Shown: in pieces, positions 56,957 to 64,000 of the stretch
How the letters are laid out: each line of letters begins with the position of its first letter
Numbering within the stretch: position 1 is the first letter of the stretch
NCBI RefSeq assembly: GCF_055900595.2
Contig: NZ_CM148325.1
Strand: one strand, 5' to 3'
DNA length: 64,000 nt
Translations under genes and position numbers: made by a program
The notes under the pieces: generated by a model
Databases searched by the model: none
Told to the model about the DNA's origin: nothing
Seen by the model: the letters and a program-made list of their open reading frames with translations, nothing else

Positions 56957-56987
56957 GTTACAGGGCAGAAATTTCCTGCCCTGTAAC
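56957..56987 (+). terminator. Hairpin after fruA (terminator-like, weak U-tract)
   Basis: gttacagggcagaaatttcctgccctgtaac perfect 12-bp stem. Confidence 0.6.
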
Positions 56988-57101
56988 ATTTGATGAGCGC
57001 AAAGGGAATGACCAGTTTGTGAATATAATTTTATGAATTTAAATGGTTTTATCTTTCAGTAGAAACCTGAAATGTTCATCAAACACTAAGGTTATTTCCT
57101 T

Positions 57102-57131
57102 AAGGGCAGATTATTTTCTGCCCTTTTTTAG
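57102..57131 (+). terminator. Second rho-independent terminator in the fruA-psuK spacer
   Basis: aagggcagattattttctgccctt hairpin followed by tttta; lies about 115 bp after the first hairpin. Confidence 0.7.
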
Positions 57132-57369
57132 TGTTCCTGTTCTGTGCATCCCGTCACAAATTCCTCACTTTTGTAATTCAGGCATTTAATCGCATTTTGT
57201 GAGCCTGCTCAAATCTGCCCATTTTGCCTCTCTGGCGGCAATTTACTTTACGTAAAACATGCATACTATGAGCACATGTTTAAATATGAACACATGTTTA
57301 AACCGTCTTTGCAGTATCTATATTCTTGTGGATTGACAGGGTTGGTAATTTTTTACCAGAGGACGTGCT

Positions 57370-58311
57370 ATGCGCGAAAAGGATTATGTCGTAATTATAG
57401 GCTCGGCGAATATTGATGTCGCCGGATATTCACATGAATCATTAAATTATGCGGATTCAAATCCAGGTAAAATAAAATTTACGCCTGGTGGGGTAGGGCG
57501 CAATATTGCACAAAACCTGGCGTTGCTGGGTAATAAAGCCTGGCTACTGAGCGCCGTAGGCAGTGATTTTTATGGTCAATCGCTGCTAACGCAAACCAAT
57601 CAATCTGGCGTTTATGTCGATAAATGCCTGATTGTGCCGGGAGAAAATACGTCGAGCTATTTATCATTACTCGATAATACCGGTGAAATGCTGGTTGCTA
57701 TAAATGACATGAATATTAGCAACGCTATTACAGCTGAATATCTCGCACAGCACCGTGAATTTATTCAGAGGGCAAAGGTCATTGTCGCGGACTGTAATAT
57801 CAGTGAAGAGGCACTGGCATGGATTCTGGATAATGCCGCCAACGTACCCGTATTTGTCGATCCTGTTTCTGCGTGGAAATGTGTCAAAGTGCGCGACCGT
57901 CTAAATCTGATCCACACTCTCAAGCCAAACCGCCTTGAAGCGGAAACCCTGAGTGGGATTGCGCTGTCAGGGCGTGAAGATGTGGCAAAGGTTGCCGCCT
58001 GGTTCCATCAACATGGCCTGAACCGACTGGTATTGAGCATGGGCGGCGACGGCGTTTATTACAGTGATATCAGCGGTGAAAGTGGTTGGTCTGCGCCGAT
58101 TAAAACCAATGTCATTAATGTTACCGGAGCGGGCGATGCCATGATGGCGGGACTTGCTTCGTGTTGGGTAGACGGAATGCCGTTTGCCGAATCTGTTCGT
58201 TTCGCACAGGGATGTTCGTCAATGGCGCTCTCCTGTGAATACACCAATAACCCCGATTTATCGATTGCCAACGTTATATCGTTAGTGGAGAACGCAGAAT
58301 GTCTGAATTAA
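57370..58311 (+). CDS. psuK: Pseudouridine kinase PsuK (YeiC), PfkB family, 313 aa
   Basis: PfkB motifs including GAGDAMMAGL; precedes psuG with 13-bp overlap. Confidence 0.93.
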   Translation: MREKDYVVIIGSANIDVAGYSHESLNYADSNPGKIKFTPGGVGRNIAQNLALLGNKAWLLSAVGSDFYGQSLLTQTNQSGVYVDKCLIVPGENTSSYLSLLDNTGEMLVAINDMNISNAITAEYLAQHREFIQRAKVIVADCNISEEALAWILDNAANVPVFVDPVSAWKCVKVRDRLNLIHTLKPNRLEAETLSGIALSGREDVAKVAAWFHQHGLNRLVLSMGGDGVYYSDISGESGWSAPIKTNVINVTGAGDAMMAGLASCWVDGMPFAESVRFAQGCSSMALSCEYTNNPDLSIANVISLVENAECLN

Positions 58312-59237
58312 AAATTTCCCCTGAATTATTACAAATTTCCCCGGAAGTGCAGGACGCTTTAAAAAACAAAAAACCGGTTGTGGCACTGGAATCGACCATT
58401 ATTTCTCACGGGATGCCATTCCCGCAAAATGCTGAGACGGCAATTGAAGTAGAAGACACAATTCGTAAGCACGGTGCAGTACCTGCAACAATCGCCATTA
58501 TTGGTGGTGTCATGAAAGTAGGTTTGAGCAAAGAAGAAATTGAATTGTTAGGCCGTGAAGGACATAACGTGACGAAAGTCAGTCGCCGTGATTTACCTTT
58601 TGTCGTTGCCGCAGGAAAAAATGGCGCGACCACCGTTGCTTCAACGATGATTATCGCGGCACTGGCAGGAATTAAAGTATTTGCAACGGGGGGGATTGGT
58701 GGTGTGCATCGCGGTGCGGAACATACATTCGATATTTCTGCCGATTTACAGGAACTGGCAAATACTAATGTCACCGTTGTTTGTGCCGGTGCAAAATCTA
58801 TTCTCGATTTAGGATTAACAACAGAATATTTAGAAACCTTCGGTGTACCGTTAATTGGCTATCAGACAAAAGCGCTGCCTGCGTTTTTCTGCCGTACCAG
58901 TCCATTTGAAGTCAGTATTCGCCTTGATAGTGCCACGGAAATCGCTCGTGCAATGGCAGTGAAATGGCAAACCGGTTTGAACGGCGGCCTGGTAGTGGCG
59001 AATCCGATCCCGGAGCAGTTTGCGATGCCGGAGGAATCTATCAATGCAGCCATAGATCAAGCCGTCGCCGAAGCCGAAGAGCAGGGCGTTATTGGTAAAG
59101 AAAGTACACCGTTCCTGTTGGCGCGTGTTGCTGAACTGACCGGTGGTGACAGTCTGAAATCCAACATCCAACTGGTGTTCAATAACGCCATTCTGGCGAG
59201 CGAAATTGCCAAAGAATACCAGCGTCTCGCGGGTTAA
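58299..59237 (+). CDS. psuG: Pseudouridine-5'-phosphate glycosidase PsuG (YeiN), 312 aa
   Basis: Indigoidine synthase A-like family sequence; operon position between psuK and psuT. Confidence 0.93.
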   Translation: MSELKISPELLQISPEVQDALKNKKPVVALESTIISHGMPFPQNAETAIEVEDTIRKHGAVPATIAIIGGVMKVGLSKEEIELLGREGHNVTKVSRRDLPFVVAAGKNGATTVASTMIIAALAGIKVFATGGIGGVHRGAEHTFDISADLQELANTNVTVVCAGAKSILDLGLTTEYLETFGVPLIGYQTKALPAFFCRTSPFEVSIRLDSATEIARAMAVKWQTGLNGGLVVANPIPEQFAMPEESINAAIDQAVAEAEEQGVIGKESTPFLLARVAELTGGDSLKSNIQLVFNNAILASEIAKEYQRLAG

Positions 59238-59330
59238 TTTCTGACGGGCAGAAAGCCGTCGCCCGTACTGATCATACATACCAAAACCTGGCGCTTGCGC
59301 CGGGTTTACTGGCATGAAAGGAAAATCATT

Positions 59331-60581
59331 ATGGATATAATGAGAAGTTTGGTGGGTATGGTGGTATTGCTGGCAATTGCATTCTTATTGTCAGTGAATA
59401 AAAAGCGTATCAGCGTACGCACGGTCGGAGCTGCATTGCTGCTGCAAATCGCTATTGGTGGCATTATGCTCTACTTCCCACCGGGAAAATGGGCAGTAGA
59501 GCAGGCGGCATTAGGCGTTCATAAAGTGATGTCTTACAGTGATGCCGGTAGCGCCTTCATTTTTGGTTCGCTGGTTGGGCCGAAAATGGATGTCCTGTTT
59601 GATGGCGCGGGCTTTATCTTCGCCTTTCGCGTACTTCCGGCAATTATTTTCGTCACAGCGCTCATCAGCCTGCTGTACTACATTGGCGTGATGGGGCTGC
59701 TAATCCGCATTCTTGGCAGTATTTTTCAGAAAGCCCTCAACATCAGCAAAATCGAATCTTTTGTTGCGGTTACCACTATTTTCCTCGGGCAAAATGAGAT
59801 CCCGGCGATCGTTAAACCGTTTATCGATCGCATGAATCGCAACGAGCTATTTACGGCAATTTGTAGCGGGATGGCGTCCATTGCCGGTTCGATGATGATT
59901 GGTTATGCCGGAATGGGCGTACCAATTGACTACCTGTTAGCGGCATCGCTGATGGCGATCCCTGGTGGTATTTTGTTTGCACGTATTCTTAGCCCAGCCA
60001 CCGAGCCTTCGCAGGTGACATTTGAAAATCTGTCGTTCAGCGAAACGCCGCCAAAAAGTTTTATCGAAGCGGCGGCGAGCGGTGCGATGACCGGGTTGAA
60101 AATCGCCGCTGGTGTGGCGACGGTGGTAATGGCGTTTGTGGCAATTATTGCGCTGATCAACGGCATAATCGGCGGAATTGGTGGCTGGTTTGGTTTTTCC
60201 AATGCCTCTCTGGAAAGTATTTTTGGCTATGTGCTGGCACCGCTGGCGTGGATCATGGGCGTGGACTGGAGTGATGCCAACCTTGCGGGTAGCCTGATTG
60301 GGCAGAAACTGGCGATTAACGAATTCGTCGCTTACCTGAGTTTCTCCCCATACCTGCAAACGGGCGGCACGCTGGAAGTGAAAACCATTGCGATTATCTC
60401 CTTTGCGCTTTGTGGTTTTGCTAACTTTGGTTCTATCGGTGTTGTCGTTGGGGCGTTTTCGGCTATTTCGCCAAAACGCGCGCCGGAAATCGCTCAGCTT
60501 GGGTTACGGGCGTTGGCAGCAGCAACGCTTTCCAACCTGATGAGCGCGACCATTGCCGGGTTCTTTATTGGTTTAGCTTGA
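59331..60581 (+). CDS. psuT: Nucleoside (putative pseudouridine) transporter PsuT (YeiM), NupC family, 416 aa
   Basis: NupC/CNT-family polytopic transporter; start at MDIMRSLVGMVVLL (ORF track extends 12 aa upstream); about 88% aa identity to NupX in this window. Confidence 0.92.
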   Translation: MDIMRSLVGMVVLLAIAFLLSVNKKRISVRTVGAALLLQIAIGGIMLYFPPGKWAVEQAALGVHKVMSYSDAGSAFIFGSLVGPKMDVLFDGAGFIFAFRVLPAIIFVTALISLLYYIGVMGLLIRILGSIFQKALNISKIESFVAVTTIFLGQNEIPAIVKPFIDRMNRNELFTAICSGMASIAGSMMIGYAGMGVPIDYLLAASLMAIPGGILFARILSPATEPSQVTFENLSFSETPPKSFIEAAASGAMTGLKIAAGVATVVMAFVAIIALINGIIGGIGGWFGFSNASLESIFGYVLAPLAWIMGVDWSDANLAGSLIGQKLAINEFVAYLSFSPYLQTGGTLEVKTIAIISFALCGFANFGSIGVVVGAFSAISPKRAPEIAQLGLRALAAATLSNLMSATIAGFFIGLA

Positions 60582-60587
60582 GTTTCA

Positions 60588-60633
60588 TTACCGGATGTAC
60601 GCGCTTATTAAGCGTTGCATCCGGCAATCGCGC
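60588..60633. repeat. REP element
   Basis: ttaccggatgtacgcgcttattaagcgttgcatccggcaatcgcgc. Confidence 0.7.
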
Positions 60634-60649
60634 TATTCCAGATTATTTT

Positions 60650-61309
60650 TTACTGCATCATCCCGGAGAATTTATTCTCCGGATCCATCTCCAGCGCCAG
60701 CCCTAACAACTGCTTTCTGTTTTTAATTAAATACCCTTTCTTACTTTTAATTAATAAACCGTCGTGAATGAGTTGAGCGATCACATATAGCAAGTGACGA
60801 TAAGTAACACCTAAATACTCTGCCGCCTGGGTATGTTTTTCGTGATAAAGATCACCTTCTTGCGAGAGTAATATAAATGCTGCCAGGCGATTCACTAACG
60901 GAAATGATTGATTCTGAGTTAAAGAAACAATATTACGATAATTTTTATGACTTAAGGTGACGCAGAGTTTTCGTAAAAATAGCGTATCGTTTAATAACAG
61001 CGGGCGGTAATGTTTCATAGGGAGCGCAAGGCACCAACACTCTTCAATCGCCTGTACCGCTCGTGGTTCATGATCTTTATCGATTAACTCAATCTCGCCA
61101 ATAAAACAGGGTGCAGCAAAGAAATCAATCAGCGACACGCGACCATTGGCAAGCGTGGCGTAAAGCCTGGCGCGGCCTCGCGTCAGGTAAAACAGCCATG
61201 ACGGCTGTTGCCCTTCCTGCACAATGTAGTCACGCGCTAAAAAATGAAACAGCCGTGTATCGGCTGAAACATCCGTTGAAAAGCAATTCTTATACGCGGA
61301 CTCACTCAT
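60650..61309 (-). CDS. yeiL: CRP/FNR-family transcriptional regulator YeiL (Nsr), 219 aa
   Basis: cNMP-binding-like fold and C-terminal HTH (…[19 protein letters not shown]…); start at [10 protein letters not shown]. Confidence 0.88.
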
Positions 61310-61477
61310 CAATTGCTGCTTAAGATCATTATTGTGGATTTCTTTCACGATGTTTATCCGCTATGAGATTTCTCATATTTAGCATACGTACGCTGTTGTT
61401 AAGATTCAATCATCGGCCCGGTCGAATTTTCTTTGCTGTAGAAAAAATAACGCAACTGGAAACAGAGGAAATAAACA

Positions 61478-62419
61478 ATGGAAAAGAGAAAAATTATTCT
61501 GGATTGTGATCCGGGTCATGATGATGCTATTGCCATAATGATGGCCGCGAAACATCCGGCGATTGATTTATTAGGTATCACTATTGTGGCGGGGAATCAA
61601 ACCCTCGATAAAACATTAATTAATGGCCTGAATGTTTGCCAGAAACTGGAGATTAATGTTCCGGTTTATGCGGGGATGCCGCAACCCATTATGCGTCAAC
61701 AAATCGTTGCCGATAATATTCACGGTGAAACCGGACTTGATGGCCCGGTATTCGAGCCGCTGACCCGCCAGGCAGAAAGTACCCATGCGGTGAAATATAT
61801 CATCGATACCCTGATGGCAAGCGATGGCGATATCACTCTGGTGCCGGTTGGTCCGCTTTCAAATATCGCGGTGGCAATGCGTATGCAGCCCGCAATCCTG
61901 CCGAAAATCCGTGAAATTGTACTGATGGGCGGCGCTTACGGTACTGGCAACTTCACCCCATCTGCCGAGTTCAACATCTTTGCTGACCCGGAAGCGGCGC
62001 GAGTGGTGTTCACCTCCGGCGTTCCATTAGTGATGATGGGCCTCGATCTCACCAACCAGACCGTTTGCACTCCGGACGTGATTGCTCGGATGGAAAGGGC
62101 AGGCGGCCCTGCCGGAGAGTTGTTCAGCGACATCATGAACTTCACTCTGAAAACCCAGTTCGAAAACTACGGTCTGGCTGGCGGCCCGGTACATGACGCC
62201 ACCTGTATCGGTTATCTGATTAACCCCGATGGCATTAAAACCCAGGAGATGTACGTCGAAGTGGACGTCAACAGTGGCCCTTGTTACGGGCGTACCGTCT
62301 GCGACGAGCTGGGCGTTCTTGGCAAGCCCGCCAATACCAAAGTCGGCATCACTATTGATACCGACTGGTTCTGGGGATTAGTTGAAGAGTGCGTGCGCGG
62401 CTACATCAAAACCCATTAA
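61478..62419 (+). CDS. rihB: Pyrimidine-specific ribonucleoside hydrolase RihB (YeiK), 313 aa
   Basis: Nucleoside hydrolase fingerprint [15 protein letters not shown] at the N-terminus. Confidence 0.95.
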
Positions 62420-62432
62420 GTGTTGATAACAA

Positions 62433-62470
62433 GCCGGGACAGTATCGCAAGATGCAGGCCCGGCTATTTC
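62433..62470 (+). terminator. Stem-loop after rihB (possible terminator/attenuator)
   Basis: gccggg…(20-nt loop)…cccggc followed by tatttctg. Confidence 0.45.
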
Positions 62471-62518
62471 TGATGGGCAGAAAGCCGTCGCCCAAAATGA
62501 CATGAAGAGATAATAACT

Positions 62519-63769
62519 ATGGATGTCATGAGAAGTGTTCTGGGAATGGTGGTACTGCTGGCAATTGCGTTTTTGCTGTCAGTAAACAAGAAGAAGATCA
62601 GCCTGCGTACCGTTGGCGCGGCGTTAGTGTTACAGGTCGTGATTGGCGGCATTATGCTTTGGTTACCGCCAGGGCGTTGGGTCGCAGAAAAAGTCGCTTT
62701 TGGCGTGCATAAAGTGATGGCGTACAGCGACGCAGGTAGCGCATTTATCTTCGGTTCTCTGGTTGGACCGAAAATGGACACCTTATTTGATGGCGCAGGA
62801 TTTATCTTTGGTTTCAGGGTATTACCGGCAATTATCTTCGTTACAGCACTGGTGAGTATTCTCTACTACATCGGTGTGATGGGGATCTTAATTCGCATTC
62901 TCGGCGGTATCTTCCAGAAAGCTTTAAATATCAGCAAGATCGAGTCATTCGTCGCGGTCACTACCATTTTCCTCGGGCAAAACGAAATTCCGGCAATCGT
63001 CAAACCCTTTATCGATCGTCTGAATCGCAATGAATTATTTACGGCTATTTGTAGTGGCATGGCCTCGATTGCTGGTTCGACAATGATTGGTTACGCCGCA
63101 CTGGGCGTGCCTGTGGAATATCTGCTGGCGGCATCGTTAATGGCTATCCCTGGCGGGATCTTGTTTGCCCGCATGTTAAGTCCGGCTACGGAATCTTCGC
63201 AGGTTTCCTTTAATAACCTCTCTTTCACCGAAACAGCGCCAAAAAGCATTATTGAAGCCGCTGCTACAGGGGCAATGACCGGGCTGAAAATCGCTGCGGG
63301 TGTGGCGACAGTGGTGATGGCATTTGTCGCCATCATTGCGTTGATCAACGGTGTTATCGGCGGCGTTGGTGGCTGGTTTGGTTTTGAACATGCCTCGCTG
63401 GAGTCCATTTTAGGTTACCTGCTGGCCCCGCTGGCGTGGGTGATGGGTGTTGACTGGAGTGATGCGAATCTTGCCGGAAGTTTGATTGGACAGAAGCTGG
63501 CGATTAATGAATTTGTCGCTTACCTCAATTTCTCACCCTATCTGCAAACGGCTGGCACTCTCGATGCTAAAACCGTGGCGATTATTTCCTTCGCGTTGTG
63601 TGGCTTCGCTAACTTCGGCTCTATCGGGGTGGTGGTTGGCGCATTTTCTGCGGTTGCGCCACACCGTGCACCGGAAATCGCCCAGCTTGGGTTACGGGCG
63701 TTGGCAGCAGCAACGCTTTCCAACCTGATGAGCGCGACCATTGCCGGGTTCTTTATTGGTTTAGCGTAG
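62519..63769 (+). CDS. nupX: Nucleoside permease NupX (YeiJ), NupC family, 416 aa
   Basis: NupC/CNT-family transporter, paralog of psuT within this window. Confidence 0.93.
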   Translation: MDVMRSVLGMVVLLAIAFLLSVNKKKISLRTVGAALVLQVVIGGIMLWLPPGRWVAEKVAFGVHKVMAYSDAGSAFIFGSLVGPKMDTLFDGAGFIFGFRVLPAIIFVTALVSILYYIGVMGILIRILGGIFQKALNISKIESFVAVTTIFLGQNEIPAIVKPFIDRLNRNELFTAICSGMASIAGSTMIGYAALGVPVEYLLAASLMAIPGGILFARMLSPATESSQVSFNNLSFTETAPKSIIEAAATGAMTGLKIAAGVATVVMAFVAIIALINGVIGGVGGWFGFEHASLESILGYLLAPLAWVMGVDWSDANLAGSLIGQKLAINEFVAYLNFSPYLQTAGTLDAKTVAIISFALCGFANFGSIGVVVGAFSAVAPHRAPEIAQLGLRALAAATLSNLMSATIAGFFIGLA

Positions 63770-63781
63770 TGCGCGATTTAT

Positions 63782-63820
63782 GAGCCGGATAAGACGCGGT
63801 CAAGCGTCGAATCCGGCAAG
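63782..63820. repeat. REP element
   Basis: gagccggataagacgcggtcaagcgtcgaatccggcaag. Confidence 0.7.
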
Positions 63821-63824
63821 ATTG

Positions 63825-64000
63825 TTACACCATCGGCACTAATGAAAGCGCGTTATCGGCAGACAGGGTAGGGTTGTTTAAGCTGCCGCTGGCGCGTGAA
63901 ATTGCCGCGCAGGCCATCGCAAAACGGGCACTATCACGGAAACTGCTTCCTTCCAGAAAGCTATACACCAGGCCCGCCATAAAACCATCGTCAGCACCAA
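63825..64000 (-). CDS. yeiI: PfkB-family sugar kinase YeiI, C-terminal 58 codons only (gene runs off the window end)
   Basis: Minus-strand frame reads …GADDGFMAGLVYSFLEGSSFRDSARFAMACAAISRASGSLNNPTLSADNALSLVPMV-stop, typical of a ribokinase-family C-terminus; the adjacent gene in E. coli synteny. Confidence 0.7.
   Translation of the reverse strand, partial: GADDGFMAGLVYSFLEGSSFRDSARFAMACAAISRASGSLNNPTLSADNALSLVPMV

Follow-up and report, generated by a model that had tools for sequence, protein, structure and literature searches.

The last 7 kb of a 64,000-nucleotide stretch of DNA (NCBI RefSeq assembly GCF_055900595.2, contig NZ_CM148325.1; hereafter ‘the window’) correspond to the Escherichia coli locus psuK-psuG-psuT-yeiL-rihB-nupX, followed by yeiI on the minus strand, and strain Z0117EC0005 is 100% identical to the window across this locus. 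The genes psuK (57370-58311), psuG (58299-59237; stop codon 59235-59237) and psuT (59331-60581, plus strand; a transporter of the NupC/CNT family), the last of the psuK-psuG-psuT group, are followed by yeiL (60650-61348, minus strand), which encodes a CRP/FNR-family regulator and lies between both operons, and then by rihB (61478-62419) and, downstream of it, nupX (62519-63769, plus strand), the paralog of psuT. Both transporter genes were assigned from the list of open reading frames, from translation and alignment, and from the RefSeq annotation of Z0117EC0005. NupX transports uridine and cytidine; for PsuT, no uridine, cytidine or xanthosine transport was detected (PMC11241209). Here, we examine two likenesses between these genes—near-identical 3' ends and a shared element in the leader of each. 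The best overall explanation, to which we assign a probability of roughly 0.8, combines gene conversion between the paralogs with an ancestral leader hairpin acting in cis.

The two genes, each 1251 nt long, lie 3.2 kb apart as direct repeats and align without gaps. They are identical at 988 of 1251 nt (79.0%) and at 365 of 417 aligned protein positions, stop codon counted (87.5%), in agreement with the figure of about 88% given in an initial reading made from the letters of the window without database searches (‘the sequence-only reading’). Divergence is not uniform along the alignment, identity being concentrated in the last ~100 bp: third-codon identity is ~0.3-0.6 along the gene and 0.8 at the 3' end, and outside the tail ~48% of synonymous codons are identical between psuT and nupX. 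The sequence-only reading had placed near-identical ends at 60481-60577 and 63669-63765, and we find two mismatches in that interval (gene positions 1152 and 1164). Directly after the second of these, the genes match without exception for 83 nt (1165-1247; 60495-60577 and 63683-63765), beyond which they differ at 1248, 1250 and 1251; the second-longest exact run in the window pair is 20 nt. When match and mismatch states were permuted, the observed run was never reached (0/20000 over all sites, and likewise in 20000 trials on third positions), nor were the 26 consecutive identical synonymous codons of the tail (0/20000; analytic P ~1.6e-6). The tract thus delimited, 95 bp with one mismatch (gene positions 1153-1247), occupies 60483-60577 in psuT (exact core 60495-60577) and 63671-63765 in nupX (exact core 63683-63765), both on the plus strand.

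The direction of transfer can be read from sites that distinguish the two genes. Across 163 sites diagnostic for psuT type versus nupX type, every gene is cleanly of one type save for patches at the 3' end. At nine such sites (1179, 1188, 1191, 1194, 1197, 1203, 1218, 1227 and 1230) the window nupX is psuT-type and the window psuT keeps its psuT states; nupX was therefore the recipient and psuT the donor for most of the tract, with psuT-type states in both genes. The converted span in nupX is at least 1165-1230 (63683-63748) and at most 1153-1247. Furthermore, both window paralogs carry 1173G and 1183T, which none of the other E. coli alleles sampled has, and strain-private alleles in both paralogs of one genome are the signature of transfer within that genome.

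A second, smaller pattern lies just upstream, at positions 1122 and 1125 (60449-60455 and 63637-63643; gene 1119-1125), where the window psuT has the nupX-type GG and nupX the psuT-type CA, swapped relative to K-12 and most strains. The nupX of strain KE40 carries the same psuT-type patch as the window nupX at 1122/1125. This micro-exchange is apparently reciprocal and is unaccounted for by a single non-reciprocal event.

Variation of the tract was followed in 13 E. coli strains with both genes (11 with both intact), together with further strains with only one, and population searches covered 5426 complete E. coli genomes. Compared across genomes, the 3' identity proves to be strain-specific, with other strains having no tract or tracts with other borders. 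The 201-nt tail allele of the window nupX is matched at 100% identity in 8 of the 5426 genomes, the next best match being 92.9%. In A5, 44, Z1322 and O104:H4 there is no tract, and 12-17 mismatches separate psuT from nupX between 1141 and the stop codon. The longest exact run between the two genes is 38 bp in K-12 (1150-1187); KE40 has one of 36 bp (1216-1251), and SCPM-O-B-8794 one of 137 bp (1078-1214), with four nupX codons turned to psuT residues and several private alleles that its psuT and nupX have in common. The psuT genes of EcN, ECTO75 and Ec-042 are nupX-type at 1188-1194, so transfer has occurred in both directions. In CFSAN004176, one gene lies between psuG and yeiI, psuT-type to 964 and nupX-type from 978, and yeiL-rihB is gone; a single breakpoint between 964 and 978 fits 263 of the 267 informative sites, and this psuT::nupX chimera is the product of an unequal crossover.

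Strain specificity, varying borders, both directions of transfer and private alleles in both paralogs all bear out the proposal of the sequence-only reading that the 3' identity reflects gene conversion. Comparison of these alleles strongly supports a recent, lineage-specific conversion of the ordinary kind. A short-patch, non-reciprocal transfer from psuT to nupX in the rare lineage of the window, across the span given above, erased ~10 paralog-specific synonymous differences and left lineage-private alleles in both copies. Comparable transfers, differing in their borders and running also from nupX to psuT, took place in other E. coli lineages, and in one strain a reciprocal crossover between psuT and nupX produced the fusion and the loss of yeiL-rihB.

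Two other explanations of the tails were weighed against these data. Selection on the nucleotide sequence of the last 100 bp (e.g. for an embedded RNA or regulatory element) would yield similar ends with no transfer at all, and the C-terminal segment is indeed the most conserved at the protein level, unconverted pairs being ~87% alike there versus 79%. The same segment, however, holds 12-17 synonymous differences in many E. coli strains, its borders of identity vary by strain, and strain-private alleles are common to both paralogs. Moreover, the three within-genome pairs available from other genera (loci L094, labelled Enterobacter hormaechei, L097, Kluyvera, and L098, Entomohabitans) are 79-82% identical, with longest exact runs of 26-41 nt and no 3' tract, which rules out selection on the tail nucleotides; the polymorphism among strains already refutes this explanation, and we consider it extremely improbable. 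Alternatively, both tails could have been replaced independently by DNA imported from another strain or species, or the pattern could be an assembly artefact. The unusual divergence of the psuG-yeiI segment from K-12 (88-97% identity in 500-bp bins, against 97-100% for the adjacent fru operon) suggests imported alleles, and 1173G and 1183T also occur in a Citrobacter psuT. Yet the psuT-type states of nupX are identical to those of the psuT in the same genome, sampled nupX tails of other genera differ at many of these positions, and SCPM-O-B-8794 repeats the pattern with different private alleles. An assembly artefact is excluded because the identical tail allele is present in eight independent complete genomes. 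Independent import is thus very unlikely, and conversion between the paralogs remains our preferred account of the tails.

How such conversion might begin is suggested by the distribution of perfect identity. For homologous recombination to begin in E. coli, ~20-30 nt of unbroken identity are required. A 29-nt block at 1150-1178 is the longest stretch without a mismatch in several pairs that are unconverted or only weakly converted, the maximum elsewhere being ~23 nt; because it satisfies that requirement, this block would be the natural seed for RecA-type strand invasion. The tracts that touch it (window, K-12 and SCPM-O-B-8794) start in or span it. Chi sites are absent from psuT and nupX and their vicinity, the nearest lying in fruA. 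Conversion of the tail would be neutral, and tracts would persist, because the amino-acid sequence of the C-terminal helix is the same in both proteins; elsewhere in the gene, conversion would exchange residues of two transporters with different substrates.

Conversion of this kind resembles that of tufA/tufB and the rRNA operons of enterobacteria: short non-reciprocal tracts arise between dispersed direct repeats, paralogs are closer than orthologs within tracts, and recombination also gives deletions and fusions. Unlike tufA/tufB, in which the whole gene evolves in concert, psuT and nupX exchange short 3' patches only, with the remaining ~90% staying 21% diverged, and their tracts are polymorphic within the species and rare (that of the window in 8/5426 genomes). 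In the literature searched, no paper was found to mention psuT/nupX (yeiM/yeiJ) in connection with gene conversion or to describe the leaders of the two genes. The pair offers a clean natural case of short-patch conversion caught within a species: one 4.5-kb locus presents unconverted alleles, several tracts with different borders, both directions and a chimera from reciprocal crossover. It could serve to calibrate tract lengths, seed-identity needs and how conversion and purifying selection balance in bacteria. For annotators and phylogeneticists, a caution follows that the 3' ends of psuT and nupX are mosaics. Conversion between bacterial paralogs and intercistronic hairpins are both of known kinds, and neither changes current concepts or would surprise a specialist.

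The duplication itself is old. Escherichia albertii and three Citrobacter species have psuKGT-yeiI only, and yeiL-rihB-nupX alone is found in Buttiauxella, Leclercia, one Salmonella enterica assembly, Klebsiella spallanzanii, Superficieibacter, Dryocola and isolate H11S18. The E. coli gene order recurs in Kluyvera and Entomohabitans; in the assembly labelled Enterobacter hormaechei the two modules are both present, with their order reversed. A neighbour-joining tree of the proteins groups the nupX genes of all genera in one clade nested among psuT genes, which places the duplication before the split of these genera; psuT and nupX are accordingly ancient paralogs, duplicated within the Enterobacteriaceae before Escherichia, Salmonella, Kluyvera, Leclercia and Buttiauxella diverged.

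Each gene is followed within 10-15 nt by a palindrome of the repetitive extragenic palindrome (REP) type. That after psuT (60591-60625) is homologous to the one after nupX and polymorphic between strains, and that after nupX (63784-63817; GCCGGATAAGACGC...GCGTCGAATCCGGC) gives a weak, sub-threshold Rfam match to the REP-derived naRNA4. The duplicated unit comprised leader, coding sequence and 3' REP, the REP being included because the downstream flanks of some psuT and nupX alleles are homologous. Gene ends and flanks (60570-60632 and 63758-63830) fall into three types, CTGGCGTAA followed by tgctcgatt, TTAGCTTGA followed by gt(t/g)tcatt, and TTAGCGTAG followed by tgcgcgatt. The TTAGCTTGA-type end is on psuT in the window, O157 and EcN and on nupX in K-12, KE40 and SCPM-O-B-8794. 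An extra REP is inserted after the stop codon of K-12 nupX, and the psuT-yeiL spacer is ~127 nt longer in ECTO75 and Ec-042. In E. albertii, the single psuT (locus L005, 2203-3530) adjoins yeiI, and its final codons and REP flank match those of E. coli nupX (GCGTAG tgcgcgatttatgagccggataagacgc; window 63700-63830). The two-gene order is also that of Kluyvera and Entomohabitans, so that yeiL-rihB-nupX may have been lost from E. albertii, and perhaps from Citrobacter, by a gene-tail crossover of the kind seen in CFSAN004176.

The second likeness lies upstream of the coding regions. A 27-nt element, TTTCTGA(C/T)GGGCAGAAAGCCGTCGCCC, occurs at 59238-59264 and 62467-62493, exactly twice in the window and with no match in 100 shuffles; its copies differ at the C/T position and at the base after GCCC (G versus A). 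The sequence-only reading had recognized this element correctly, with coordinates (59241-59268 and 62468-62495) that were off by 1-4 nt. It is kept at orthologous loci in both paralog lineages, across 12 named genera and one unclassified isolate, and lies invariably between an enzyme gene and a transporter gene in the same orientation. The seven differences between the window and K-12 in the 93-nt psuT leader all fall outside the 27-nt element and the stem of a second hairpin described below (H4). We considered the element as a REP, a bacterial interspersed mosaic element (BIME) or another dispersed repeat and rejected this classification: a 36-nt leader query finds a median of 2 and a maximum of 3 places per E. 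coli genome, and the 64-kb window holds two matches. A scan of 57000-64000 against Rfam at E<=10 brought no family near its gathering score; the sole match overlapping either leader was isrJ (19.5 bits against a gathering score of 37, E=4.7).

The element contains a small hairpin, H3. In the psuT leader it reads CGGGC-AGAAAGCCGTC-GCCCG (59245-59265, plus strand), begins 8 nt after the psuG stop codon and sits inside the shared element 59238-59264; in the nupX leader it reads TGGGC-AGAAAGCCGTC-GCCCA (62474-62494, plus strand), inside 62467-62493, with a closing pair U-A rather than C-G. We aligned 25 distinct leader sequences from the 12 named genera and the unclassified isolate. The conserved fold, YGGGY-N11-GCCCR (a 5-bp stem with an 11-nt loop), pairs in 124 of 125 cells (99.2%), against no more than 60% for slid controls of the helix. 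At the closing pair, 15 sequences have C-G, 6 have U-A and 3 have U-G, and the inner pairs show one exchange of G-C for A-U and two of C-G for U-G, so that double changes and wobble intermediates are present at two of the five pairs. All five one-sided changes pair only as sense-strand RNA, and none is of the antisense type. A covariance model of H3 matches only psuT/nupX leaders in a search that took in the window, locus L098 and 74 loci with more distantly related NupC-family genes. In Leclercia the stem is extended and the loop sequence is new, and in Entomohabitans psuT a different, longer hairpin stands at the same place; these hairpins with replaced sequence argue for a structural rather than a sequence-specific role. 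The structure shown by these comparisons points to H3 as an ancestral sense-strand RNA stem-loop kept before both transporter cistrons.

The fold proposed in the sequence-only reading, GACGG-N8-CCGTC, did not hold up as the conserved one. On the same alignment it pairs in 76% of cells, no better than shuffles, with one pair broken in 14 of 25 sequences. In Escherichia its predicted energy is close to that of the conserved helix (-8.5 versus -8.4 kcal/mol for psuT, -6.7 versus -7.3 kcal/mol for nupX), and in other genera it is weak; it is best regarded as an Escherichia-specific alternative of about equal predicted energy. A further candidate, the hairpin TTTCTG-N5-CAGAAA, is 68% paired on this 25-sequence alignment, the 5' flank of which has indels between genera.

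Further hairpins accompany H3. RNAalifold on 13 psuT-type leaders returns H3 and, independently, a second helix, AAACCUGGC...GCCGGGUUU (H4). In the window this is AAACCTGGCG-CTTG-CGCCGGGTTT (59284-59307, plus strand), also found by single-sequence folding, and is terminator-like with only three U. Across the 13 leaders, H4 has a variable loop, a U-G/C-G exchange and three or four U after the helix. It is preceded by AAA, followed by only UUU(A/C/U) and not called in a consensus terminator scan; H3 has no U-tract. The E. coli nupX leader, which has undergone deletions, lacks H4. Upstream of H3 in that leader, folding and inspection reveal H0, GCCGGG...CCCGGC (62432-62465, plus strand), after the rihB stop codon; the sequence varies from genus to genus, but most genera have a hairpin at this position, as judged by eye. 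The nupX leader is polymorphic in length in E. coli: SCPM-O-B-8794 (locus L004, 8165-8201) retains a 12-nt segment, ataacgggatcagacctgacatg, that resembles the leaders of Salmonella and Buttiauxella and is deleted in the window (62495-62518), K-12 and the other sampled strains.

We infer that the leader is a cis-acting intercistronic mRNA element. H3 would most likely act in cis on the polycistronic mRNA, as a candidate barrier or a determinant of processing or stability that makes expression of the transporter independent of the enzyme gene before it; in psuT-type leaders, H3 together with the terminator-like H4 may form a weak attenuator. Intercistronic mRNA stem-loops confer segmental stability or polarity in operons, an example being the REP hairpins of malE-malF. 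Those hairpins are likewise GC-rich, lack a U-tract, lie between genes for a soluble enzyme and a membrane transporter in the same orientation, and are conserved in structure more than in sequence. The psuT/nupX leader differs in being neither REP nor BIME (two copies per genome) and in having a moderately conserved 11-nt loop. With the leader attenuators and riboswitches of nucleoside-transporter genes in Rfam, it shares the position before a transporter cistron and, in psuT-type leaders, a sensor-like hairpin followed ~20 nt later by a terminator-like one. In contrast to these, a 21-nt hairpin with a replaceable loop is too small and variable for a typical aptamer, matches no Rfam family, and lies inside an operon rather than at its 5' end. 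The leader is a modest candidate for a new small RNA motif in two poorly understood nucleoside-transport operons.

A more elaborate proposal, which we hold to be unlikely, is that the leader represents an undescribed regulatory RNA acting in cis, in which H3 and H4 together form a two-hairpin attenuator gating the transporter cistron. It would respond to a nucleoside-related ligand or protein, or else to translation of the preceding enzyme gene, the stop codon of which stands 8-10 nt before H3 in all psuT leaders. The Escherichia H3 would have been made bistable by insertion of GA and a G-to-C change, giving the iso-energetic GACGG/CCGUC, and this form would have spread to both paralogs by conversion.

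The sequence-only reading had also allowed for a protein-binding site. If the leader were a DNA operator, bound by YeiL or a different dimeric regulator, or belonged to an internal promoter of the transporter gene, it would coordinate the two transporters transcriptionally; the core GGGC-N11-GCCC is palindromic on DNA too, symmetric changes (T...A, CAGGC...GCCTG) keep the palindrome, and yeiL is linked to rihB-nupX in every genus sampled. The five one-sided changes noted above, on the other hand, give T-G combinations that pair only as sense-strand RNA, and Leclercia and Entomohabitans swapped the sequence yet kept a hairpin. The 11-bp spacing is unlike that of CRP/FNR sites (5-N4/6-5), the yeiL-rihB and psuK promoter regions hold no related site or palindrome, and a consensus promoter and terminator scan called nothing at the element, including no sigma-70-like promoter. 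The literature searched holds no description of a YeiL target motif. A role as a DNA site is thus unlikely.

Finally, the two leaders could resemble each other simply as a leftover of the duplication that has no function, with conversion alone preserving the likeness in E. coli. The E. coli copies share a derived flank, ATTTCTGA, and a loop, AGAAAGCC, both without counterpart in orthologs, which points to past homogenization and suggests that the E. coli leaders may also have been homogenized by an older conversion. However, the hairpin is kept in both paralog lineages across the sampled genera while its flanks diverge with indels, and the closing pair that tells the two paralogs apart (C-G versus U-A) is stably maintained among E. 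coli strains ~5% apart, which argues against continual overwriting. We rate a mere remnant as quite improbable and favour the hairpin as a retained, cis-acting mRNA element.

Several points weigh against the combined explanation of conversion and leader hairpin. The direction and borders of conversion are drawn from 13 sampled nupX alleles. A population count by way of second BLAST places is confounded: a psuT-tail query matches the 29-bp block of many unconverted pairs, so that the resulting figure of ~2670 was not used, and a canonical nupX-tail query gave 66 candidate genomes with a second place. The arguments from neutrality and from a minimal efficient processing segment (MEPS) as seed are ones that we infer. 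For H3, the sequences were gathered by a pattern favouring the GGG/CCC core and are related to one another; three of the five pairs are invariant or nearly so, covariation coming mainly from the closing pair; and the ECTO75 nupX allele has a G-A mismatch at that pair. The wholesale loop replacement in Leclercia and the different, longer hairpin of Entomohabitans psuT count here as well. The E. coli Term-seq supplements searched list no 3' end or processing site in these intergenic regions, a result that is uninformative because the genes are barely expressed in laboratory conditions. In the supplement of PMC7815308, presumed to represent a Rho-dependent (bicyclomycin-sensitive) set, K-12 position 2255991 on the minus strand is significant and lies ~94 nt past the stop codon of psuT and antisense to yeiL; position 2253044 on the plus strand is antisense to nupX.

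The surrounding region varies considerably. Identity to K-12 is 88-89% over 58500-59499 (the 3' half of psuG, the leader and ~110 nt of the psuT 5' end) and 91-97% over the remainder of psuG-yeiI, and 59150-63850 is matched at >=99% identity in only 8 of 5426 genomes, most genomes being at 90-95%. The psuG-yeiI locus (58000-64000) is hyper-polymorphic within E. coli, with imported alleles as a possible source. Disrupted alleles are also found: nupX has an internal deletion (gene ~67-1204) in ~949 of 5411 genomes (B2-type), and strain 150 has an insertion of the IS1203 family (IS, insertion sequence) in place of nupX. In O157:H7 TR01 nupX is frameshifted, as is psuT in OW1E2; in EC17CM6 an IS1-associated deletion has removed psuKGT-yeiL and the 5' end of rihB; and the nupX remnant of EcN carries two mutations in the leader element. 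The psuT/nupX locus thus decays repeatedly in E. coli.

Some smaller features complete the description of the locus. The start codons of psuT and nupX (59326-59343 and 62497-62531) are predicted to lie inside a small hairpin with codons 2-5, and both genes have a second in-frame ATG at codon 4 (MDIM and MDVM). Two hairpins after fruA (56957-56987, ACAGGGCAGAAATTTCCTGCCCTGT; 57104-57124, GGGCAGattattttCTGCCC followed by a T-run) open with the GGGCAG(AAA) of the leader element, a likeness that is probably a coincidence of GC-rich hairpins. Two tandem copies of (G/A)(C/A)ACATGTTTAAA lie at ~57271-57303, ~60-100 nt upstream of the psuK start codon; they bear no relation to the leader element and could be an operator for a regulator of the psu operon.

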